Source: a bacterium (GTDB lineage: Bacteria > Bacillota_I > Bacilli_A > RFN20 > CAG-826). Taken from it: a DNA stretch of 64,000 nucleotides. How positions within the stretch are numbered: the first letter of the stretch is position 1; the number at the start of each line of letters is the position of its first letter. The translations under genes and the position numbers were made by a program. Positions 11,898 to 37,929 of the stretch are shown here, piece after piece. The notes beneath the pieces were generated by a model. That model made no database searches. It was not told the origin of the DNA and was given only the letters and a program-made list of their open reading frames with translations. The stretch lies in contig CAVHQU010000001.1 in assembly GCA_963638555.1 (NCBI GenBank), positions 26,317 through 90,316 on the forward strand, given 5' to 3'.

Positions 11898-11999
11898 AAA
11901 ATATGTTTATCGACAAGTTGATTATAAACTTTACCCATGAAACTTTGCAAATAAAAAAGGCCAATCTTTAAGACTGACCTAATTTAATTGTTAAGAAAT

Positions 12000-13124
12000 C
12001 TATCCTGGGAAACCGCCACCGCCTGGGAAACCGCCACCTTGTGATGATGTGCCTTTTCCAGCTGTGCTTGCTGCAATTTCAACTTTGCTAGAAACAACAC
12101 TCTTTGCATAAACTGTTCCATCAGCAGTAATAGATGCTTCGATGTAATAAGTTGATCCTGTAACAAGATCAGTTGTTGCGGTTGCTGTATCAACAACTTC
12201 TAATCCAAGTGTATTGTTAACTGTTGTTCTACCGAACATCGTTGTTTCAGTATAAGTTAATGTGTCTGTCTTAATTGGAGTTGTTGCAGTGGTCGAATCA
12301 TAAACATTGATAGTAAATGCTGTATTCTTATAGAAATCAGAATAATTTGTTAATGTAACCAAGATACCACCTGCAGTTGGAACTTCAGCTGTGATGGTTG
12401 GAGTTGCATATTCACCATGTAAGATTTTCACATCAGAAGTTGCAATAGCACTATCTTTAATATGATTGTCATCGCCTAAGGCTTGGACGGTGAAAGCAAA
12501 ATAGTTTGGTTCAAATTCAGAAGCAACAGAATCTGTTAACTTATATGAAACTTTTTCTGACGTTGAAGCAGGAACTTTGAAGTTTGTAAGAAGACTATCT
12601 TCGGAAATTGTTCCTTTTGCATCGGATTTATAAGCAAATACGTTGTAATTTGTTGCGTGCAAATCGCCAGTAAAGGAAATTGTCATATTGTCCCAATCAA
12701 ATTCAATATCTTTTGGTGTTGCTAAGGTAAGATCGTCTTCGCGGATTGTGTAGCTGATAGCTTCAGAACCATTTGAGGAATTGTAACTAACACCATCGCC
12801 AACTGCAACGACTTGAATCTTATATGTTCCGCCATCTAAAGGTGTAGGAAGTTCGATTTGAGTGGTTGTACCAGTGGTGACTTTAGCTTTAGAATCACCA
12901 TCTTTGTAAACGTAGACTTGGTAGCCTGATGCATTTTCAACAGCATCAAATGTTACATAGTCATCTTCGCTTGACCAGTCATCATCACCCGTATGAAGAG
13001 TGACGTTGGTTGGAGCATCAAGTAATTTTCTTGCAACCTTCTCTGTTGTCGTTTCACCACATGAGGCTAAGAGGGCAGAAGCAGAGAGAAGAGTTACATA
13101 TCTAAGTGTTTTTTTAGATTTCAT
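12000..13124 (-). CDS. Lipoprotein with Fn3/Ig-like repeats, Gly-rich C-terminus
   Basis: Lipobox LLASCG after MKSKKTLRYVTLLSASA. Repetitive beta-rich sequence. Ends SSQGGGFPGGGGFPG. Confidence 0.6.
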   Translation of the reverse strand: MKSKKTLRYVTLLSASALLASCGETTTEKVARKLLDAPTNVTLHTGDDDWSSEDDYVTFDAVENASGYQVYVYKDGDSKAKVTTGTTTQIELPTPLDGGTYKIQVVAVGDGVSYNSSNGSEAISYTIREDDLTLATPKDIEFDWDNMTISFTGDLHATNYNVFAYKSDAKGTISEDSLLTNFKVPASTSEKVSYKLTDSVASEFEPNYFAFTVQALGDDNHIKDSAIATSDVKILHGEYATPTITAEVPTAGGILVTLTNYSDFYKNTAFTINVYDSTTATTPIKTDTLTYTETTMFGRTTVNNTLGLEVVDTATATTDLVTGSTYYIEASITADGTVYAKSVVSSKVEIAASTAGKGTSSQGGGFPGGGGFPG

Positions 13125-13137
13125 TTTGTTTTTTCTC

Positions 13138-14766
13138 CTAGAAAATAAGTGTCAATAAGAGAAGCGTGGCAAGGACGATATGTCCAACCTTTATCTCTTT
13201 GAAGTGGAAACGAATAACCTTGAGGACAACATCGGAGATAACTCCAACAGCGATTGCGACAACGAAATTCATTGTGAAACCTGCAATGAGAATTGCAAAG
13301 AGTGATGGCAAAAATTCTCCCATATCATTCCAATTGACATCTTTGATTTTGCTAAATGCAAACAATCCAGCGATAAGAACGATAGCATAGATGACCATAC
13401 CGTTGATAAATAAGCCTGAGAAGACAAATGTAAATGCGGATACGATCACGATAATGCCTGCAACAATTGAGGTTAAACCAGTTCTTCCGCCTTCTTTTGA
13501 TGAAACAAGCGATTCAGGACGTGCAGTGATAGTAGGAACACCAAAGAATGCACCAACTAAAGAGGCAAGAGCGTCTAAACTATAGACGTTTGCATAGTTG
13601 CCAACAGGTCCAAATAAATCAGAATCTCTGTAGATAGCATATTCGCCGTTTTCGTCTTTTTCATCAGCAATGGCTGCGTGAGCTTGCATGACTGATCCAG
13701 TTTCGGAAATGCCAATCATTAAGAATGACATGAAAGTCGTAAAGAAGATTGAGAAGACTGACAATCCAGCGTTACTGCCTTCTGGAAGAGTCGCCATATA
13801 AGCGGAGAAGTCAAATCCAGATTTGAAGATAGCGCCAAGATATGAGTTGGAGATCGTTCTCCAAGACATTGTTGAGGATTGGGTATAGTAATATGAACCA
13901 CCATATGATGGGGTTAAGAACGAGAAGAAATAATAGTCACGGAAGTTTCCTCTGATGAGCCAGCAAAGGACATAGATTAACAAGCCAATGCCAAAGGCAT
14001 CAATGAGAGGATGCTTGAAACTCCAATTCTTGATTTTGATATTTGCTAAAACGACATAAATTAATAATGTCACAAAGCAAATAATGACAGACATATAGCT
14101 GTAATAATATGTGCTATCGGAGAAATCCAAATTAAGAGTGACGTAAGTGAGTGAATCTCTAGGGATCGAGTCACCTGCGCTCATCTTAGAATTTAAGATT
14201 GAAGCAATGTTGAATTCGTTAACGTTTAAGATTCCAAGTTGGATGAGAACGTAAACGATTAGCATCAAGCCAACCATGGCGGGCATCGCTTTCTTTATGC
14301 TTGTCGGAACGGCTTTAAGAATAAAATTTCTTGTGAGAGGGATAGCCATGACAATTAAGTAAACAATGTTTGAAACAAATGAGATGGCAATGACGTTCCA
14401 ATAAGTTAATCCCGAATGAGCACCCATTATGGAAATTATCAAAGAAACGACGCCTAAACTCACTGAATGAGTAAGAGGAACGTTAGTGATAAGGCCAATG
14501 AGGATGCTGCTAATGCCAGAGATTAACGCAATGATGAAATAAAGCGTGTAGCCAAACGAATCTTCCGTTGTCAATCCGGCCTTTCCAGACAGGAGAGTTG
14601 CTAAGATAACCGAGGTACAAGTAAGAGCAAAACCAGCTAAGATACCAGCGAAAAGTTCAGTTTTTGTATTTGTCTTTCTTTTGCTAAAAAGGAATATGGA
14701 GTCAAAGAATCGATACACGGGGTTCTTCTTTTTCTCCTTGATGGTGATTTCTGTGTTATTTTCCAT
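13138..14766 (-). CDS. Polytopic membrane permease, NCS2/AzgA-PbuG-like
   Basis: TELFAGILAGFALTCTSVILATL and AIPLTRNFILKAVPTSIKKAMPAMVGLMLIV resemble the N-terminal and TM segments of AzgA/PbuG purine permeases, but the protein is longer (542 aa). RBS GGAGAAAGG. Confidence 0.5.
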   Translation of the reverse strand: MENNTEITIKEKKKNPVYRFFDSIFLFSKRKTNTKTELFAGILAGFALTCTSVILATLLSGKAGLTTEDSFGYTLYFIIALISGISSILIGLITNVPLTHSVSLGVVSLIISIMGAHSGLTYWNVIAISFVSNIVYLIVMAIPLTRNFILKAVPTSIKKAMPAMVGLMLIVYVLIQLGILNVNEFNIASILNSKMSAGDSIPRDSLTYVTLNLDFSDSTYYYSYMSVIICFVTLLIYVVLANIKIKNWSFKHPLIDAFGIGLLIYVLCWLIRGNFRDYYFFSFLTPSYGGSYYYTQSSTMSWRTISNSYLGAIFKSGFDFSAYMATLPEGSNAGLSVFSIFFTTFMSFLMIGISETGSVMQAHAAIADEKDENGEYAIYRDSDLFGPVGNYANVYSLDALASLVGAFFGVPTITARPESLVSSKEGGRTGLTSIVAGIIVIVSAFTFVFSGLFINGMVIYAIVLIAGLFAFSKIKDVNWNDMGEFLPSLFAILIAGFTMNFVVAIAVGVISDVVLKVIRFHFKEIKVGHIVLATLLLLTLIF

Positions 14767-14820
14767 ATAACGCCTTTCTCCTAAAGGGAGATCGTTCTCC
14801 CCCTAGGTTTTTAATAGTTT

Positions 14821-17800
14821 TTATTCAGCTTTTTCTTTGCGTTTCTTTGAACCAAAGTAGATTCCGACGCCAAGCCCAACTACCACGACTCCACCGATAA
14901 GCGAACCGACAATGATGCCGGTGTTATCCGAACCAACTGTTGTTTCTTTGATGATCGTATCTGTTTGTCCCGTTAAATTAGAGACATCCATTTCGTCATA
15001 GTTATAGGATTCGCCCATAGTCCAATCAGATCCATCAAAGACTGTAGCTTTGCAAATGATGTGCGTATCGTAATAAAGTCTCGTCTTGGCAACTTCTCTT
15101 AATTGATATGCGCCATAGTAATCGTTTATTGTGTTCATATCGCATGCAGTTCCTGAATTGTAAGAGGAAACAGCAAAGATAGAACCATCGTTCATTTCGG
15201 CATCAGACACCTTATCGAGTGCATTGCTCCAAAGAAGACATGCAACGCCAGAGAAGGTCGCTTTGACTTCGCCAGAATATGTGACACCATCCATACCATC
15301 AGAGATGATAAGTCCATGCCAGTCATATTCTTCACGAACAATGCCGGTGTATAAGCCACGGTTTGCCCATGTGATACCAATTCTGTTAAGGGAGGCCATC
15401 ATACCAGACATTGGGGCGATCTTCGATTTCATTGATCCTTCCCAAGCACGGATATAGATTTCACGGATAGCTTGTTCAGAGCAGAAATCCATTTGTCCAG
15501 AACGTCCGCCATCAAGGTCGTTTAACATGAAGTGTTTATTGAACGTGCCAACGCCTTCGGATTGAATGCCAGCAGTTTCAGCAATACACATTTGTCCAGC
15601 AAGGAAGCCATCTTCTGAATAATATTCGAAGTTACGACCACCAAATGGTGAACGGTGTGTATTCATAGCAGGTCCGAAGCACGAATCTTCGCCGATTCTA
15701 ACACATTGTTTGCCATAAGCTTGGCCAACTCTTTCGATGAGTTCTCTATTCCATGTTGAAGCCATGACAACTTCAGATGCCCACCATGTGCAATCATCTT
15801 GGTTGCCCGTTCCAGCTTCACCTGGGCCATCAGCCGCACTCTTTTGGGCTAAGCCCATGGAATCAAATCCACCAAGATATGACGTGCCTTGGATTTTAGC
15901 ATAATCCGCCCAAGAACCCTGATCAACCCAGTTATCCCAACGTGCATCTGTATAAGGAATTTCATCCCATCCATATGACGTTTTTGGGTCTGTATCGGTC
16001 GTTATTGCATCGCTTGAAGAGATTTCATTACCTCTTACGAAACGTGTGTCTGGAGTGTATTTAGTTGTAGATTTTCCAACATTGGCGACTGCATCCTTGT
16101 AGGATTGGTCGTTATTGTCTTTGCCCCAATAGTTGCAAGTGTTTCCAACAAACTCCGTTGAAGATGCAAAACCATAGTTATAGGTGCATTCTTTTGTTGT
16201 ATCTTGATATGGGACTTTGTATGTGACAGTTGTGCTTGAACGTTTATCAGAAACTTGAGCCTTTCCTGTCGTATCAGATGGGAGAGCACGGGTTGCGCCA
16301 TACACTTCATCTTCTCTTCCACCCTTTTCATATCCAGTTGCACCTTTATTCGCAATAGTATCCCAATCAGAAGAGATTGTTGAACGGTGCATATAAATCA
16401 TGCCTGTGCCATCTGTGGCGTTAACATCATTTAATTTATTGTATGCTTGAGTTGCATCTTGGTCTCTCTTGCCATCTGCTTCATCGGTATAAATGATATC
16501 TTTAGCGACAGTTGTCTTAATAGGATCAGTCATTTGAGTATGAGAATCTTTTTGAAGACGAACTTCATATTCACCAGATTCAAGAACGAATCCGCCCCAT
16601 TTTGGATTGCCAGCATGATCAGTTCCGCTTGCGGTTGCTTTGTATCCCAAGTAATCGTAGGAAGCAATATCATCGGTGTTAAAGGTGATTGTGACATTGC
16701 CATCTTCACCCGGTTTTAAACGACCGGTTTTTGCAAATCCAGCAAGGGTGACTTCTGCTTTATCAATGCCACCTTTGTTGTATGGTGCGTGAATATACAA
16801 TTCAACGACATCCTTACCAGCATAATCGCCAGTATTCTTAACATTGACGACAACCGTGTTTGTTCCGCCTTTTTCAAGTTTTACATCGCTAGAAACAATT
16901 GTCCAATCGAACGTGGTATAGCTTAAACCACCACCAAATGGCATAACAATGAGATCATCGTAGTCATTCTTGAAATCATACGTTTTTGCTTCTTCAGCAA
17001 TAGAACCATCTTTTGCGTAACGTGGTGTTCCCGTTACTTTAACTCCATCGGCATAAGCTGTTTCATACCAACGATAACCAACAAAGATATTTTCTTCATA
17101 TTGATTGTAGTTAGGAGAACCACCCCAGTTTCCACCGAAGCCATTTGAATAAGAAGAGCCACCATTGTTATAGAATACAGGCATGGAATAGAAATCAGAC
17201 ATCCATGTATCGGAAGTTCTGCCGGATGGAGAGAGTTGTTTTCCGGCAGAATCTTTTCCTCTAAGAACGTTGCCAACACCGATAAGGCCAGCTTCACCAG
17301 GCCCGCCAATCCAAAGACATGCATCGGAATATTGGAGATATTCACCGATTGTCATGACGTTTGAAGAGTTGATGAGAACGACAATCTTTTTATAGCCGAG
17401 TTCTTCTTTTAAATATTTAAGAAGATCAAGTTCGTTTTGTGTTGGGTCAAGATATGTCCTATCGTATTCACCAGCTTGGGTACCATTTGTATCAATGGTG
17501 TGAGAATCCATGTGTTGAGGAAGTTCAGCGCCTTCGTGGCCTTGTCTGCCAAATGTTACGACAGCGATATTGTCCGTTGGATTTGCGACATCTTTAGACT
17601 TACGATAGGTTTCGACTGGTAATTCTGGGACATTATAGGATTGTCCGTTGATAATTGTGCCACCATTATCGGAAACCCACGATTCTTGGACAAGGTTTCC
17701 ACCATTTGGATCACCCATCCAGTTCCAAAGTTTTTCATTAACTTTAAATCCGGCAAGTTCAAATGCTTCCTTTTCGAACATGCATTTGGAATCCCATTTG

Positions 17801-18096
17801 CCTTTGCCAGAACCGCCACCGCCATGGATTATGTTGTAACCAACGTAACCATACAAATCCAAACCGGTGCCACTGTTTAATGGAAGAGCGTTGTTTTTGT
17901 TTTGGAAAAGAACAGATCCCTCTTCTTCGAGTTCGGTATCGAGTTTGACACCTTCTTCGTAAAGAGTTTGCACGTCATAGCCATCTGCTGCGTAAGTAAC
18001 GCTCGGGGATGAGATGGAGGCTGCAAACACAGCCGCGATTGCCCCAGCACTTGCTAAGATGGTCATGCCGCATTTAACTAATTTTTTCTTTTTCAT
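14821..18096 (-). CDS. Glycoside hydrolase family 3, domain-permuted (C-terminal-type domain first, catalytic domain last), signal peptide and C-terminal TM anchor
   Basis: N-terminal part LFQNKNNALPL...IHGGGGSGKG matches the GH3 C-domain. The GH3 catalytic motif GGRNFEYYSEDGFLAG and nucleophile region LIISDGMDG lie near the C-terminus. Ends in hydrophobic helix GIIVGSLIGGVVVVGLGVGIYFGSKKRKEKAE. Confidence 0.8.
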   Translation of the reverse strand: MKKKKLVKCGMTILASAGAIAAVFAASISSPSVTYAADGYDVQTLYEEGVKLDTELEEEGSVLFQNKNNALPLNSGTGLDLYGYVGYNIIHGGGGSGKGKWDSKCMFEKEAFELAGFKVNEKLWNWMGDPNGGNLVQESWVSDNGGTIINGQSYNVPELPVETYRKSKDVANPTDNIAVVTFGRQGHEGAELPQHMDSHTIDTNGTQAGEYDRTYLDPTQNELDLLKYLKEELGYKKIVVLINSSNVMTIGEYLQYSDACLWIGGPGEAGLIGVGNVLRGKDSAGKQLSPSGRTSDTWMSDFYSMPVFYNNGGSSYSNGFGGNWGGSPNYNQYEENIFVGYRWYETAYADGVKVTGTPRYAKDGSIAEEAKTYDFKNDYDDLIVMPFGGGLSYTTFDWTIVSSDVKLEKGGTNTVVVNVKNTGDYAGKDVVELYIHAPYNKGGIDKAEVTLAGFAKTGRLKPGEDGNVTITFNTDDIASYDYLGYKATASGTDHAGNPKWGGFVLESGEYEVRLQKDSHTQMTDPIKTTVAKDIIYTDEADGKRDQDATQAYNKLNDVNATDGTGMIYMHRSTISSDWDTIANKGATGYEKGGREDEVYGATRALPSDTTGKAQVSDKRSSTTVTYKVPYQDTTKECTYNYGFASSTEFVGNTCNYWGKDNNDQSYKDAVANVGKSTTKYTPDTRFVRGNEISSSDAITTDTDPKTSYGWDEIPYTDARWDNWVDQGSWADYAKIQGTSYLGGFDSMGLAQKSAADGPGEAGTGNQDDCTWWASEVVMASTWNRELIERVGQAYGKQCVRIGEDSCFGPAMNTHRSPFGGRNFEYYSEDGFLAGQMCIAETAGIQSEGVGTFNKHFMLNDLDGGRSGQMDFCSEQAIREIYIRAWEGSMKSKIAPMSGMMASLNRIGITWANRGLYTGIVREEYDWHGLIISDGMDGVTYSGEVKATFSGVACLLWSNALDKVSDAEMNDGSIFAVSSYNSGTACDMNTINDYYGAYQLREVAKTRLYYDTHIICKATVFDGSDWTMGESYNYDEMDVSNLTGQTDTIIKETTVGSDNTGIIVGSLIGGVVVVGLGVGIYFGSKKRKEKAE

Positions 18097-18260
18097 AATT
18101 TCCTCCTTGAAATAATTAGTAAGCTTTATTCCGAACTGCTTAATCGGCTAAGTAAGCCCTTACATGAAAGACTGGCTTAAATGTGAGTCGAACAATAAAT
18201 GCGTTGCTTAACTCGGTTGGCAATACTCTAAAACAAAACAAAATGAAAATGTTGTGCTCG

Positions 18261-18337
18261 GGAATGAAACGACCTTTTTTGGGAATGAAACGACTATCGA
18301 AAAGGAATGAAACGACCTTTTTTAGGAATGAAATGAT
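18261..18337 (+). promoter_or_regulatory. Array of four direct repeats GGAATGAAACGAC(C) at 21-22 bp spacing (LytTR-type binding-site architecture) upstream of the kinase gene
   Basis: Repeats start at 18261, 18282, 18304 and 18326 (last copy GGAATGAAATGA), with a degenerate fifth at about 18344. Each is followed by a T-run. TATAAT at 18371-18376 lies just before the ORF. Confidence 0.5.
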
Positions 18338-18382
18338 TTTTAGGCTAATGAAAGAGGTTTCATAAGCCTTTATAATATTGAT

Positions 18383-19717
18383 ATGGATTTTTTACGTTAC
18401 TTCATCGATTTCTACATCAATCTTGTTAGAGGCTATTCTTATCCAATTACAGAAATTTTCATGTATTTAGGAATCGTTGCTCTATTCTTTAGAAAGAGAA
18501 AACATAAAATTAGATATCTTTTGTACATATTTGATGCGGTATGCATATGGTTAGCAGGCCTCATCTTAACCTCTTTTATATATTGGGGCTGTTCATTCAA
18601 AGAAACATACACGATTGAAGTTGTTTTGCCTTTGTTGATAGTTGGTTATGCCTTCATGAGAGGAGAATGTTCCCTAATTTTACGCTTTATATATGGTTTT
18701 ATTTATTATGCAGTTTTGTCTTCTTCTTTGGTCATATCTTCGTATTTCGGATCATTAATTTATTCAGCTGGAGTTTCTATCAGCAATTTCCCCTTAACAT
18801 TAGTTGTTCAAATTTTATTGATAGTTACCACAGTTCTCGTTTTAAGAATACCTAAAATAGAAGACTTCGATGATACCAATGTCGTTTATTCGTACGTCGT
18901 TTTACTAATTCCAATCATTCATCTTATTGTTATTTATAGTGTTAAGTTTGTAGATTCTGATCCATCTTTGCAAAAGACAATCTATAACTTAGCCTTTGTT
19001 ATGCTGGAGTATATCGTGTACATCTTCTACTATTTCATAATGAAGGAACATCACCACAATTATGAGTTACAAGCTTTAGCGATTAAAAAACAGCAAGATG
19101 TCGCCTTAACGCATATGGCAAAAGACAATGCCGCCCTCCTTTCAAAAGTACGTCATGACATGAAAAACCATCTTGCATATATGGGCACTTTGTTAAAAGA
19201 GAAGAAATACGATGAACTCGATTCTTATTTCGCTCAATACTCAACTGAGATATATGATGCAGTCAAATTTTCTAATTGTGGTAATTCATCGGTTGATTAC
19301 ATGTTGAATATCGAAATACAAAACGCTAAGAGGCATAATGTTGTTTTAACATATTTAGTTTCTGTCGCACCAACTTTGCCGATTAAGAGCACGGATTTGA
19401 CCTCTTTGTTAATGAATGCTTTGGATAATGCGATTGAAGCTGCATCAAAATCGGAAGAGAAGAAAGTTAACTTCTCCATGAGGCAAGAAGGAATGTCCAT
19501 CTTGATAAAAGTCAGCAATAGCATTAGCAAAGGTTCAAAGATAGATTTCAGAAAGACAAGTAAACGTTCCTTAGGGCATGGCTATGGAATAAAGATCATG
19601 AATGACGTGGCCGAAAAGTATGGCGGAGCGTTTAGTATTAAAAAAGAGGATGAGTCTAACGTAACCCTCACTTGTATGCTATCTTTATATAACAAGGAGG
19701 AAGAAAATGGCAAATAA
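18383..19717 (+). CDS. Sensor histidine kinase, HPK10 (AgrC/ComD/PlnB-like) family
   Basis: Six or seven N-terminal TM helices. H-box VRHDMKNHL, N-box LMNALDNAIEA, G-box GHGYG. Overlaps the next gene by 11 nt. The true start may be a downstream ATG because a -10 box sits 7 nt upstream. Confidence 0.8.
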   Translation: MDFLRYFIDFYINLVRGYSYPITEIFMYLGIVALFFRKRKHKIRYLLYIFDAVCIWLAGLILTSFIYWGCSFKETYTIEVVLPLLIVGYAFMRGECSLILRFIYGFIYYAVLSSSLVISSYFGSLIYSAGVSISNFPLTLVVQILLIVTTVLVLRIPKIEDFDDTNVVYSYVVLLIPIIHLIVIYSVKFVDSDPSLQKTIYNLAFVMLEYIVYIFYYFIMKEHHHNYELQALAIKKQQDVALTHMAKDNAALLSKVRHDMKNHLAYMGTLLKEKKYDELDSYFAQYSTEIYDAVKFSNCGNSSVDYMLNIEIQNAKRHNVVLTYLVSVAPTLPIKSTDLTSLLMNALDNAIEAASKSEEKKVNFSMRQEGMSILIKVSNSISKGSKIDFRKTSKRSLGHGYGIKIMNDVAEKYGGAFSIKKEDESNVTLTCMLSLYNKEEENGK

Positions 19718-20450
19718 AATCGTTATTGCAATTTGCGATGATGAAAGAGAAATTCTCAATATCATCTCTTCTTCTGTCTCTATTGCTTTTACAAATAAAC
19801 ATATTAATATGGAGATTCTCACATACACGGATCCCTTCTTTTTGAAAGATGACCTTTCAAATAAGAATATTTCTTTGATATTTTTGGACATCGATATGCC
19901 TGGCTTAAGCGGAATTCAACTTGCTAAATACATTAATGACATGAACCTTGAGATCGACTTCATTTTCGTTTCAAACCGTGAAGATTTAGTTTTTGAATCA
20001 TTGAAAACAAGACCTTTTGGATTTGTCAGAAAATCCGCTTTCTTATCAGATATCACACCGATAATAGATACTTACATCAAAACAAAATTTCATAACGAGG
20101 ATGCAGGTATCTTGGTAAAAACAAAAAATGGCAGAGAGAGTGTTGCTTTAAATGACATCACCTACATTGAAGCAATAGGTAAATCTCAGTTCATTCATCT
20201 TAAAAGTGATCCTAACAAAGCAGCAGAGGTTCACTCATCTCTTTCAACATTGCAGGAATCTTTGAAAAGTAAAAACTTCATTAGAGTATCTAAAGGCTTT
20301 ATCGTTTCTCTTAGATATGTTAAGGCAATTAACTGCGATGAAGTTCTTTTAAGCACAGGAGAAAAGATTATCATTTCAAAGATATATAGTCATGATGTTA
20401 GAATGGCTTATATGGATTATCTCCAACAACTTGAATCAGTTATTTTATGA
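19707..20450 (+). CDS. Response regulator, receiver + LytTR DNA-binding domain
   Basis: Receiver IAICDDE...FLDIDMPGLSG. LytTR domain ITYIEAIGKSQFIHLKSD...FIRVSKGFIVSLRYV. RBS AAGGAGGAAGAAAATG. Confidence 0.85.
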   Translation: MANKIVIAICDDEREILNIISSSVSIAFTNKHINMEILTYTDPFFLKDDLSNKNISLIFLDIDMPGLSGIQLAKYINDMNLEIDFIFVSNREDLVFESLKTRPFGFVRKSAFLSDITPIIDTYIKTKFHNEDAGILVKTKNGRESVALNDITYIEAIGKSQFIHLKSDPNKAAEVHSSLSTLQESLKSKNFIRVSKGFIVSLRYVKAINCDEVLLSTGEKIIISKIYSHDVRMAYMDYLQQLESVIL

Positions 20451-21970
20451 GTTACGTATTTATTTCAACCGAAAAGAAAGAAAAAGATTTAATTTTCGCT
20501 TATCTTGAAGCGGATGACTCTTTGAAAATCATCAATAAAAATGTTTTAAATTTTGAAAACGATAAAGATGAGATTTATGACATCTTAACAAATCCAGACA
20601 ATGGGATATTTGGCTGGTCTATTTATGATGATATTTTTAACATTTTGAATTCGTTTAATGCTACAGGAGTCGAACCTTTTGATTTTCAAGTCTTTGATGT
20701 CAGGTATATGCTTAACGTCATTTTAGCTGACACAGACAATTACGAATTGAGGAAATACATTCCTTTGTATCTTCAGGAAGACAAAGACAGTCCAAAGATT
20801 GAAAATAACCCGTATCTGATATACCAAGCATTTAAGAATTTGCTATTCGTTCTTGGAAATGGAATTGATGAATTCTTAGATAGAAGAGATTTCGATTCAT
20901 GCTTTTATTATTCTCTTGATGCGTATTATGGAGAAAAGCCTCAAGAGGGTGTTGTGGACAAGCTTAGATTGCAATATATAAAGAATCTTGAAGAAAAAGG
21001 TTTGACCCATTATGTATTTTTCGATTTTGAGTGTGCCAATTGTTTGAATGGATCGGGAAAAATTTGTGAACTCGGCGCGGTTGAGACCGACTTAGATTTC
21101 AACATTATCAAAGAGCATCATTTCCCAATAAACCCTGATAGTAAATTTCTTTTAGCAGATAGAGACGGCGTCAAAAGAATTCATCTGTATTGGGAGGCAA
21201 ATGATTATCAAGCATATAAGCAAGCCCCTAAATTAGAACATTACTACCCCTTCTTCAAGGAATTGCTAGAAGATGAACACTCGTTGAAATTCGGCCACGC
21301 GGTTGAGAATGATTTGTGGTTCTTAGCGAGTGACCTTAAAAGAAACAATTTGCCGCCAATAAGTGTTTCAGCAGTCGATACTCAAATGATGTATCGCCTT
21401 CTGATCGATGAAACCAAGGTTTCCATCGCTCTTCATAAAGCATTAATCTCTTTATGTGGCGAGGAAGAATTAGAGAAATACGATCATCATAACTCATTAG
21501 ATGATTCAAAAATGACGATGAGAATCCTTAAAGAGATGTTAAACAATAGTGGAACAACCTTACTAGAGCTTCTGAAGAATAGGACTTCATTGTTAAGAAC
21601 AGTTGAAGATACAGACTTGCTCGATAGAAATGGCAATGCATATAAATTCCCTATGCCTGATAGATTCCGTCAAATAGAACCGGCCGTCCCTGAAAGAATA
21701 TACACAGGTATCTACTCGATTGGCTTAGGCGATAGGCTAATTAAGGAAGCAGTCTATCAAGACTACGATAAAGCACATATGGGTGCCTTTGATGGAAAGA
21801 AATACCTATTTTCTAAGAGTTATAGGTACCTTGATATAGAAACTATTAAAGAAACAATTTCAAAATTAAGAAAAGAAGGAAAAATCATTACAAACGATTA
21901 TTCACAAGCCAATTTCGTTGTTGATCCTAAAGGTGAAATTGTGATTCATAGAAGAGAGAAACATCGCTAA
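20447..21970 (+). CDS. DEDDh (DnaQ-like) 3'-5' exonuclease domain protein with uncharacterised N- and C-terminal extensions
   Basis: Exo I FFDFECAN, Exo II GHAVENDLWFL, Exo III YDHHNSLDDS in the middle third of a 507-aa protein. ATGA start-stop overlap with the LytTR regulator gene. Confidence 0.7.
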   Translation: MSYVFISTEKKEKDLIFAYLEADDSLKIINKNVLNFENDKDEIYDILTNPDNGIFGWSIYDDIFNILNSFNATGVEPFDFQVFDVRYMLNVILADTDNYELRKYIPLYLQEDKDSPKIENNPYLIYQAFKNLLFVLGNGIDEFLDRRDFDSCFYYSLDAYYGEKPQEGVVDKLRLQYIKNLEEKGLTHYVFFDFECANCLNGSGKICELGAVETDLDFNIIKEHHFPINPDSKFLLADRDGVKRIHLYWEANDYQAYKQAPKLEHYYPFFKELLEDEHSLKFGHAVENDLWFLASDLKRNNLPPISVSAVDTQMMYRLLIDETKVSIALHKALISLCGEEELEKYDHHNSLDDSKMTMRILKEMLNNSGTTLLELLKNRTSLLRTVEDTDLLDRNGNAYKFPMPDRFRQIEPAVPERIYTGIYSIGLGDRLIKEAVYQDYDKAHMGAFDGKKYLFSKSYRYLDIETIKETISKLRKEGKIITNDYSQANFVVDPKGEIVIHRREKHR

Positions 21971-22034: not shown

Positions 22035-22619
22035 ATGTATCAAGAGTTACAAAAAGGTTGGATTGAACTTATCGTCGGTCCAATGTTCGCTGGAAAAAGT
22101 GAAGAATTAATTCGTAGAGTTAAGACCTTATCATATACAAAAATGAAAATCATCGCGTTTAAGCCCGCGATTGATGATCGTTATGATAAGACCGCCATAT
22201 CTTCTCATGATGGCGCTAAATATGAAGCATATGCAATCAAAGAAGCTAAATCCATTATGGAATTAGTCAAAGATGATACGCAAGTTGTGGCAATAGACGA
22301 AGTTCAATTCTTCGATATGTCTATCGTCTCTATATGCGAAACCTTAGCAAATAGAGGAATACGTGTCATTGCGGCAGGGCTTGATTTGGATTTTAGAGGC
22401 GAGCCATTTGGGCCTATGCCTGAGTTGTTAGCAAGAGCGGAGTTCGTTACAAAATTATCTGCCGTATGCGTTTGCTGTGGATGCGCTGCAACTAGAACCC
22501 AAAGATTAATAAATGGAGAGCCTGCTTATTATGATGATCCAATAATTCAGGTTGGTGCAAAAGAAAACTACGAAGCTAGATGTAGAAAACATCACATAGT
22601 TAAAATAAGAGGAAGATAA
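22035..22619 (+). CDS. tdk: Thymidine kinase
   Basis: P-loop [12 protein letters not shown]-terminal Zn-ribbon cysteines CVCCGC. RBS TAGGAGGGAAATATG. Confidence 0.9.
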
Positions 22620-22761: not shown

Positions 22762-23493
22762 TTATTTGCTTGGATATATGTATTCCACACTATTCCAAGT
22801 ATAAACAATATTAAGAGTTGCGGATGAATTAGGACCTATATCATTTACGGTTGTTTTCGTAGGCAAATAATTTTCAAACTCAATGGTTTCCTCAATCGAA
22901 GTGAATTCGGCTGAAGAATTATTTGCTGTGCCATTGATAACGAGTTTAAATGATGAATCATTAATCTTTGTAAAATTTAATGTATATTCATATCCATCTT
23001 CGTTTGTTCCAGCATACAACGCATCAATCTCATCATAAGTGTTTGTGACAAGTTCTTTGATGGAATCTTTCGTGATTGAGCTTGAAGTGGCAATCTCGTC
23101 AAATGCAGTTGTAAATTCCTCTTCTGTAGCATATGTTGTGGTATTGCTAATGCCCATTGTGGATGTTACATAGAAATATTCTCCATCTTTTTCGTAATAC
23201 CACGTTTCAGCATCTATGCCTAAAGCATTTGCCTTTGTGTAAAAATATCTATTCCCAACCGTTGTATCAAAACGGACGTCACCTGTGATAGTAAGTGTCG
23301 TAGAATCAAAGGTTGTAACAATTTCCGTGGTCATAGAACCTTTTGATGGGGCTAGAAACGAGTCTTTTGCCACTTCTTCTTTCATGGCTGCAAGTTGATT
23401 CTTTGCATTTGTTTCGTCTGATGCCTTGTTATTGTCACACGCACATAACATAAAGGCAGGCAAAACAAATAGCATCTTTAAGGACTTCTTCAT
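22762..23493 (-). CDS. Lipoprotein, function unknown
   Basis: MKKSLKMLFVLPAFMLCACDNN signal with lipobox. Ser/Thr-rich mature protein. Confidence 0.6.
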   Translation of the reverse strand: MKKSLKMLFVLPAFMLCACDNNKASDETNAKNQLAAMKEEVAKDSFLAPSKGSMTTEIVTTFDSTTLTITGDVRFDTTVGNRYFYTKANALGIDAETWYYEKDGEYFYVTSTMGISNTTTYATEEEFTTAFDEIATSSSITKDSIKELVTNTYDEIDALYAGTNEDGYEYTLNFTKINDSSFKLVINGTANNSSAEFTSIEETIEFENYLPTKTTVNDIGPNSSATLNIVYTWNSVEYIYPSK

Positions 23494-36757: not shown

Positions 36758-36800
36758 AAAAATAAGAGACGGCTACATGGGTCGTCTCTTTTTTAATGCC
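36758..36800. terminator. Bidirectional terminator between DegV (+) and GGDEF (-) genes
   Basis: AGAGACG-(11 nt)-CGTCTCT flanked by AAAAAATAAG and TTTTTTAAT. Confidence 0.6.
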
Positions 36801-37929
36801 CTCTATGATAACGTTCTTTCTCGATATACATTTCCGTATCAAAGTTCTTAAGGAATTCCGCCGCTGATTGTCCTTTTATATATGATGCATAACCTAGTGA
36901 GGCGAACAATTCAATTTCGCATTCATCAGAATTATTGTATTTTTCGAATTCATGATTTATTTGTTCGATATACGTCTTTATTTCCTTAACATTCCTAGTG
37001 TTTACAAGAATAACGAATTCATCGCCCGAAAGTCTAATGACTGTACCTTTTCTGCCGACTGCCTTATGAAGAATCTCAGCAAACTCTTTTAAAGCCTTAT
37101 CTCCAGCGTCATGGCCATATTTGTCATTGATGTTCTTGAAATCATTGATATCTAACATGATTCCCGTAACAGATGGGTCTTTCTTATTTGTGATATTATT
37201 GATCGAATAATTGAAGTAAGCACGATTATATGTGTCAGTTAACTCATCTGTGAATACTCTTTCCATTGCTACAGAAGATAGAACGCCAGCTAGCCCTACT
37301 GCAATGCATGGCCATATCATGCTGATTCCATAGAAGAGGCTTTGAAGGATCGTCCCAAGAATTGTTGGAAATATAAACAAATAGAAAGGGAAGAATCTTG
37401 ATGATTTCTTTTTAACCAAAGCTACGATATAAACAGTTAAAGAATAAACAATATAAAGGAAAGAAAGAGCAAGCGTTATGTAATAGCCCCATAAACGAGT
37501 ATACGTATTGCCCGAATCTATCTTAAAAAGGAATGGGATGAAGATATTAACTATGACCATTACGACATTTATAAGGAAAGGAAGCGATAGAATGAAGATT
37601 GAGACTTTTCTTGGTTTTGAAAAGAAATAATAACGAACGAATAACGATAAAAGGGACGCAAAAAGGGTCGGTGCAATAAAATCCAATGTGTTCACAGCCA
37701 TCCCAAGATAATAGAAAACCATCCCTTCTTTTTCATTAACGTAAAAAGAAATAGTCTCTAAGATAATTGTAAAGAAGGCAATAAATAATAAAGATAGGAG
37801 AACACCGTTGTAATAACGTTTGGAACGCAAAGAACGGATATTCGCGAAGAATAAAACAATAAGCAAAATTAATGCTAAGGCATTAGTCATATATGAAGAT
37901 GAGATTGCTAAATTAGTTTCAAAAATCAT
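36793..37929 (-). CDS. Membrane-anchored diguanylate cyclase-like protein (GGDEF domain with SGDEF variant)
   Basis: Six N-terminal TM helices. I-site-like RxxD region, then DINDFKNINDKYGHDAGDKAL ... RLSGDEFVIL. Confidence 0.8.
   Translation of the reverse strand: MIFETNLAISSSYMTNALALILLIVLFFANIRSLRSKRYYNGVLLSLLFIAFFTIILETISFYVNEKEGMVFYYLGMAVNTLDFIAPTLFASLLSLFVRYYFFSKPRKVSIFILSLPFLINVVMVIVNIFIPFLFKIDSGNTYTRLWGYYITLALSFLYIVYSLTVYIVALVKKKSSRFFPFYLFIFPTILGTILQSLFYGISMIWPCIAVGLAGVLSSVAMERVFTDELTDTYNRAYFNYSINNITNKKDPSVTGIMLDINDFKNINDKYGHDAGDKALKEFAEILHKAVGRKGTVIRLSGDEFVILVNTRNVKEIKTYIEQINHEFEKYNNSDECEIELFASLGYASYIKGQSAAEFLKNFDTEMYIEKERYHRGH

Follow-up and report, generated by a model that had tools for sequence, protein, structure and literature searches.

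Introduction

RNase T, TREX1/2 and oligoribonuclease are homodimeric DEDDh exonucleases, Exuperantia carries a dead exonuclease-fold domain, and KapD of Bacillus subtilis is a single-domain protein of ~205 aa. In mycobacteria, a non-canonical DnaQ combines an exonuclease with a clamp-binding motif and with a BRCT domain that is essential for its function (PMC11348249). Here, we analyse a gene encoding a 507-aa protein of the same superfamily, located at positions 20447-21970 of the forward strand of a 64,000-nt stretch (the window) of contig CAVHQU010000001.1, assembly GCA_963638555.1, from a bacterium of the Bacillota (CAG-826). An earlier note, made from the sequence of this DNA, had described the product as an exonuclease core between two flanking domains of no recognisable kind, co-translated with a two-component signalling system. 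Our best overall explanation, to which we give a probability of roughly 45%, is that the gene encodes a predicted tandem-duplicated 3′-5′ exonuclease whose first domain is dead and whose associations lean towards RNA.

When compared with the homodimeric enzymes, the window protein has both folds on one chain, with one of them active. RNase T has a basic substrate-binding patch, whereas the dead domain of the window protein is acidic. KapD, put forward in the earlier note as a distant analogue, has only the DEDDh superfamily in common with it; no common gene context or more specific similarity came to light, although the two were not directly compared, and the analogy is unsupported beyond that level. 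A probable likeness in layout is that to the mycobacterial non-canonical DnaQ, in which a DEDDh exonuclease is followed by a BRCT domain (PMC11348249), as it is by a BRCT-like one in the window protein. However, the BRCT identity is unproven in the window protein, which lacks the clamp-binding motif and has an extra dead domain, and the sequence similarity between the two is at the superfamily level only. Literature searches for tandem DEDD exonucleases found none. The combination of a dead exonuclease, an active exonuclease and a BRCT-like tail is a new arrangement inside the known DEDDh superfamily, the enzyme class itself being ordinary.

Domain architecture of the exonuclease

The open reading frame (ORF) at 20447..21970 (+ strand) is complete and, according to the ORF call, Pfam and alignment, encodes a dead exonuclease domain, an active DEDDh exonuclease, a linker and a basic C-terminal domain. 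The three exonuclease motifs singled out in the earlier note, FFDFECAN (residues 191-198), HAVENDLWFL (284-293) and YDHHNSLDD (345-353), are real. Pfam RNase_T (PF00929) matches residues 190-361 with an E value of 1.3e-8 and 36 bits, above its curated cutoff of 24, and none of the five catalytic residues (D193, E195, D289, H348, D353) varies among 15 full-length homologues or in an alignment of 5 of these with 4 double-exonuclease relatives. Judged from these matches, the DEDDh assignment is not due to chance. The catalytic domain (residues 187-372; 21005..21562, +) has the RNase H-like exonuclease fold by which the DEDDh/DnaQ-like superfamily is recognised, and the protein is thus a predicted 3′-5′ exonuclease of this superfamily. 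Its core, previously placed at residues 195-350, lies at ~191-353, and the C-terminal region, previously given 180 aa, has ~146-154.

Assignment to a more precise class failed. NCBIfam yielded partial matches only, the best being to the PolC exonuclease region (E 7.5e-11), and membership of the PolC or epsilon proofreading subunit families was not supported by their full-length equivalog models (40 bits against a cutoff of 873 and 37 against 1043). Nor was membership of the oligoribonuclease/nanoRNase family (NF003765, 19 bits against a cutoff of 106). Residues 1-189 and 362-507 had no match among Pfam and NCBIfam models, and the same was true when the isolated N- and C-terminal regions were compared with Pfam at E values up to 10. 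A phmmer search of the full protein against PDB sequences returned no relevant match. With Foldseek, the full model gave single-domain matches to the PDB only, the best with a query-normalised TM of 0.29; on this model, solved structures account for at most a single domain of the protein. The earlier note's description of a DEDDh exonuclease with a novel architecture is borne out to this extent, neither a library model nor a solved structure being available for the whole.

Nevertheless, both flanking regions can be related to known sequences by remote homology. Alignments and models identify residues 1-186 (20447..21004, +) as a catalytically dead copy of the protein's own nuclease domain, derived by tandem duplication of the DnaQ fold. 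In this degenerate domain, Exo I (D-x-E) is replaced by FIST, Exo III (H-x4-D) is gone and the INP insert is deleted (alignment A5); of the five catalytic residues only D62, at the Exo II position, is kept, and D84 is kept as well. Both a pairwise BLASTP comparison (E 0.008) and hhalign bring residues 41-95 into register with Exo II of the active domain. In the full model (pLDDT 75.6) the order β1-3, αA, β4, αB, β5, αC occurs twice, and the N-terminal domain modelled alone reaches a pLDDT of 86.9. The two repeat units also end in a related strand-helix element, which reads DFxSCFYYSLD (residues 148-158, invariant) in the first and PxCL(R/K) in the second. A profile of the N-terminal domain, run against 1.84 billion representative proteins, picked out, apart from the family's own members, the double-exonuclease relatives P0138 (3e-15), P0140 (2e-10), P0143 and P0145, and it also matched single-domain exonucleases in their catalytic domains (9e-7 to 7e-4).

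The dead domain is not decaying: its dN/dS is 0.044, while the catalytic domain has 0.018 and the C-terminus 0.17; these values come from the least saturated pair of loci (L009/L007), the sole usable one with a dS of ~1.2 even there, as most pairs are saturated (dS >1.5). The domain is very acidic (pI 4.2-4.8, net charge -7 to -21). This charge argues against its serving as a basic substrate-binding patch of the RNase T kind, and that idea was dropped.

The remainder of the protein is not unique to it either. Residues 187-504 align with positions 14-309 of 332 of a family of ~317-aa proteins (hhalign of A1 against A3, 99.9%, E 1.3e-36), which identifies them as homologous over their whole length to this exonuclease plus C-terminal domain family. 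The family has >1400 members, mostly in Clostridia, annotated merely as 'exonuclease domain-containing protein'. The earlier statement that the flanks have no recognisable motif is thus right for library models and wrong in a wider sense, given that one flank is a dead exonuclease duplicate and the other is common to more than a thousand proteins. Behind the catalytic domain, a tail element (P380-x-x-L383) leads into a linker of low confidence (residues 373-444; 21563..21778, +; pLDDT <50 at 390-421) that contains invariant columns. Among these, Y-x-F-P-x-P (residues 399-404; 21641..21658, +) is invariant in the alignment and predicted to be disordered in the model, and is a candidate partner-binding peptide.

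The last 60-80 residues are basic and show the pattern G-K-x-F-x-F-S, helix, GG, strand. They include a β-α-β-β module (residues 445-507; 21779..21967, +; pI 9.2-10), delimited by hhalign, charge and weak BRCT matches, whose final strand-helix is missing in the clade of the window protein. Profiles A4 and A7 retrieve BRCT domains in the right register, though weakly (E 0.15-0.7), among them those of Dpb11 (0.15), RFC1 (0.35), PARP4 (0.21-0.6) and Lig4, and the Pfam BRCT model weakly matches the relative P0149 (E 0.15). The module is probably BRCT-like, its identity as a true BRCT domain being unproven. The clamp-binding motif Q[Y/L]ALF, looked for with a regular expression, is absent from the window protein and from its clade. 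One far subclade (P0008-P0015) has in the linker, at residues 387-392 (~386-392 of the window protein), a QIDLSF sequence like a beta-clamp-binding hexapeptide; the window clade reads EDTDLL at that position.

Relatives of the protein and their distribution

A search of 5.8 billion protein clusters retrieved ~15 clusters of full-length homologues with 45-78% identity, all from metagenome assemblies. Members named at NCBI are called 'hypothetical protein [Bacillota bacterium]' and related genomes are recorded under titles like 'uncultured Mollicutes bacterium' or 'Bacillales bacterium'. The family is restricted to one lineage, that of Mollicutes-like Bacillota genomes from gut metagenomes. All three regions of the protein are conserved in the homologue alignment, which has 108 invariant columns. 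The gene is single-copy, keeps a fixed chromosomal position and is vertically inherited between housekeeping genes, but it evolves faster than they do, the identity between relatives being 45-70% for the exonuclease compared with 74-94% for neighbouring genes. Two side observations concern the genomes themselves. The exonuclease genes of loci L013 and L014 have a synonymous distance of 0.37 over the N-terminal domain and of 0.02-0.09 elsewhere, a contrast that suggests a recombination mosaic. Moreover, the bins of L008, L009, L010, L011 and L013 are labelled Bacteroides uniformis, Sodaliphilus, Hallerella, Alistipes communis and Escherichia coli, and these public labels look wrong because the bins carry a Bacillota/Mollicutes-like locus with shared synteny.

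Further away stand metagenome proteins of ~560 aa (P0138, P0140, P0143 and P0150-P0154) made of an exonuclease, a second exonuclease and the C-terminal domain. Pfam scores two RNase_T stretches in P0140, and tblastn matches both halves. These double-exonuclease proteins align end to end with the window protein and have the same three-part layout at 24-30% identity. Unlike it, they lack the YxFPxP motif and have a longer first domain in which the INP insert is kept. In P0140 and P0145 this first domain still has all DEDDh residues (FIDCEVAN / ND / HNxxND intact), whereas in P0138 and P0143 it is degraded (alignment A5). The two families together offer a clear example of a domain that was duplicated in tandem and then inactivated, with the intermediates (both domains intact, one partly degraded, one dead) kept in metagenomes. 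As regards P0145 (6001-7517 in L019/L020), the protein is no longer than 457 aa, with a short ORF overlapping the end of its gene; the early stop could stem from a frameshift, from an error in the assembly or from the use of an alternative genetic code.

The ~317-aa proteins (P0017-like; Candidatus Coproplasma, Roseburia and other metagenome genomes) have in common with the window protein the FDxECA...KIC signature, the INP insert, the linker and the basic C-terminal domain. They differ in being without the dead N-terminal domain, and are themselves uncharacterised. They also differ in context. A gene for an RsmF-type (PUA-containing) m5C RNA methyltransferase lies directly downstream, on the same strand, in 75 of the 75 evaluable metagenome loci of the family (from the set L026-L105), and the window protein has no such neighbour. 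In an ORF-based count of 37 of these loci, the exonuclease and RsmF genes overlap by 4-17 nt in 23 cases and are separated by 1-26 nt in 10. The same pairing is present in L021-L023 and in a second, separate subfamily (L107). Our analysis thus defines two unannotated protein families that have so far carried generic names, and the RsmF-type pairing of the two-domain relatives provides a concrete lead on a role in RNA processing in gut Clostridia.

Substrate and competing explanations

According to the mechanism that we propose, the single two-metal active site would cleave off nucleotides at a free 3′ end. The N-terminal domain, dead and strongly acidic, would be a fixed non-catalytic partner of the active one, an intramolecular version of the dimers formed by many DEDDh enzymes; alternatively, it may offer a surface on which other proteins dock. 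Attachment of the enzyme to its substrate, or to a partner, could be the task of the basic BRCT-like module and of the invariant YxFPxP peptide. The identity of that substrate is the least certain step. We tentatively favour RNA 3′ ends, in the maturation or turnover of stable RNA, while holding it just short of an even chance; a DNA substrate is a somewhat less probable but serious possibility. A more specific and more speculative proposal, which we consider rather unlikely, is that the exonuclease plus basic BRCT-like family, encoded directly upstream of RsmF in all loci examined, would constitute an exoribonuclease so far overlooked in Clostridia and related Bacillota, acting on small-subunit rRNA late in its maturation or in its quality control. 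On this proposal, the window protein would be a derivative in the Mollicutes-like lineage, in which the duplicated dead acidic domain replaced dimerisation or partner contacts.

Several observations weigh against the explanation that we prefer. RsmF is absent from the window and from the family loci L001-L020, so the RNA inference rests on relatives at 26-35% identity. The top NCBIfam profile matches are DNA proofreaders (PolC, 7.5e-11; DinG, 2e-5). Deoxynucleoside genes lie nearby, namely a thymidine kinase in 6 of 6 near-clade loci and, in the far clade, a NUDIX-CAT-deoxynucleoside kinase operon with a nucleoside transporter; NrdDG and thymidylate kinase are found near the double-exonuclease relatives. 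The BRCT matches are statistically weak (E 0.15-0.6) and the domain is truncated in the window clade, and for the packing of the N-terminal domain against the catalytic one the model offers no more than a pTM of 0.68. Finally, a Shine-Dalgarno-like purine run is absent within 15 nt of the exonuclease start, and for this reason expression of the gene may really depend on the response regulator encoded upstream.

Some of these points are what would be expected of a DNA 3′-5′ exonuclease, that is, an auxiliary proofreader or a repair or gap-processing enzyme like the mycobacterial non-canonical DnaQ, with a BRCT-like tail docking to the replisome or to DNA ends. We consider this explanation unlikely, although it is the strongest of the competing ones. 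The best profile matches are indeed the exonuclease domains of PolC and DinG, the C-terminal module is basic and BRCT-like, genes of deoxynucleotide metabolism recur nearby, and one subclade has the clamp-motif-like QIDLSF in its linker. However, a Q[LY]xLF motif is absent from the window protein and its clade, the BRCT match stays below significance, and in the closest two-domain relatives the exonuclease gene shares its operon with an rRNA methyltransferase gene and not with replication genes. In addition, a protein with 45-70% identity among neighbours that retain 74-94% changes at a speed unusual for a replisome component.

A further possibility, raised in the earlier note, lies with the adjacent two-component system: the exonuclease could be its output or modulator in the manner of KapD, or could degrade a signalling nucleotide such as pGpG together with a GGDEF protein. 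The start of the gene does overlap the regulator gene in an ATGA, without an obvious ribosome-binding site, LytTR-type repeats lie upstream of the operon, and the arrangement is kept in a relative with 78% identity. But 10 of 12 family loci lack the kinase-regulator pair, among them those of 69-71% relatives with the same flanks, a conserved extended -10 stands upstream of the exonuclease, and the repeats are located between the kinase gene and a divergent GH3 operon, pointing to control of glycan utilisation. As for the nucleotide, the oligoribonuclease model gives 19 bits against a cutoff of 106, and the GGDEF gene (36793-37929), although real (Pfam E 4e-32), is unlinked, on the minus strand and ~15 kb away, so that the nanoRNase-like role proposed with it is not upheld. 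Of the two findings that the earlier note had named as speaking against its view, full-length homology to a characterised family and a conserved context free of the signalling system, the latter was made. We regard a signalling role as very improbable.

Hardly more can be said for a fast-evolving nuclease engaged in conflict with phages or mobile elements, in which the acidic dead domain would act as decoy or sensor, and this is the explanation to which we give the least weight. It would account for a protein that diverges far faster than the flanking genes, PADLOC reports matches to a Cas-associated DEDDh model (4e-9) and to the candidate PDC-S48 (1.5e-7), and some double-exonuclease relatives lie beside methyltransferase, LRR and HTH genes. 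Yet the PADLOC matches are limited to the generic exonuclease domain, every domain is under purifying selection, and the gene is single-copy and inherited vertically at a fixed position between housekeeping genes.

Organisation of the locus and regulatory elements

The two-component system that adjoins the exonuclease consists of an AgrC-type GHKL histidine kinase (18383-19717) and a LytTR response regulator (19707-20450), together spanning 18383..20450 (+), and lies outside the conserved unit. The kinase and regulator genes overlap by 11 nt, and the regulator stop and the exonuclease start overlap by 4 nt. The overlap is real, while the link is confined to two close genomes, the window and its 78% relative (L006), the only 2 of 12 loci with the pair upstream. 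Gene order in the window is Tex, GSIII, GpsA, GH5, an inserted block, exonuclease and thymidine kinase. The block, ~8.5 kb relative to the 70% relatives (11898..20446), comprises two unknown genes, GH3, kinase and regulator, and the 70% relatives show the same gene order without it. The 45-47% relatives have Tex-GSIII-exonuclease and then, in convergent orientation, a (GpsA)-NUDIX-CAT-deoxynucleoside kinase operon, along with a Bmp nucleoside transporter. Because the outgroup is without the cassette, its gain in the ancestor of the window and L006 is the parsimonious reading. From this comparison of loci, the signalling system is a secondary neighbour, its adjacency being a recent insertion accident and not a conserved partnership. 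In this respect, a 4-nt gene overlap is a poor guide to function, as the overlap with a signalling operon came here from the insertion of a cassette.

A promoter-like site (20375..20404, +) precedes the exonuclease. Its extended -10, TGTTAGAAT, at 20396-20404, lies 42 nt upstream of the start and inside the coding sequence of the regulator. The extended -10 (TGnTAGAAT) is present in 6 of 6 near-clade loci, at ~42 nt upstream in the window, L006, L007, L009 and L010 and at ~11 nt in L008. In the window and L006 the element is part of the regulator gene's coding sequence, and it lies within the Pfam LytTR match, which ends at residue 234; the last codons of the regulator could still be former intergenic DNA. 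In the genome of the window, read-through from an autoregulated LytTR operon and coupling through the ATGA overlap would be possible, with the gene's own conserved extended -10 being kept.

Four direct repeats, GGAATGAAAYGA, with a spacing of 21-22 nt, are located just upstream of the kinase promoter (18261..18336, +), between the kinase gene and the divergent GH3 operon, and nowhere else in the window. LytTR sites are expected to have this spacing. The repeats are likely to be putative LytTR binding sites shared by the kinase promoter and the GH3 operon, which suggests that the two-component system controls the glycan cassette and itself.

The intergenic region between GH3 and kinase (18097-18382 in the window, 5649-5927 in L006) is 93% identical, compared with 75-91% at the nucleotide level for the flanking coding sequences. 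Within it, the ~140 nt that adjoin the GH3 start hardly differ between the two genomes and could form a conserved leader or a minus-strand regulatory element; Rfam has no match there, nor anywhere in the window. In the segment 18371-18385, a TATAAT box ends 6 nt before the kinase ATG (18383), and the kinase-regulator mRNA may for this reason be leaderless.

Downstream, the thymidine kinase gene (22035..22619, +) begins 64 nt after the exonuclease, has its own GGAGG ribosome-binding site and follows the exonuclease in 6 of 6 near-clade loci. In two loci of the more distant relatives (L018, 230-7704; L024, 6459-11146), double-exonuclease or related exonuclease genes lie near an NrdG-NrdD-thymidylate kinase-LRR/methyltransferase cluster, which may be of host or of phage origin. 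Downstream of the thymidine kinase in the window (22762-23493) there is a gene for a ~250-aa lipoprotein-like product without a Pfam match, of which relatives carry 2-3 tandem copies (L008, 11631-14374).

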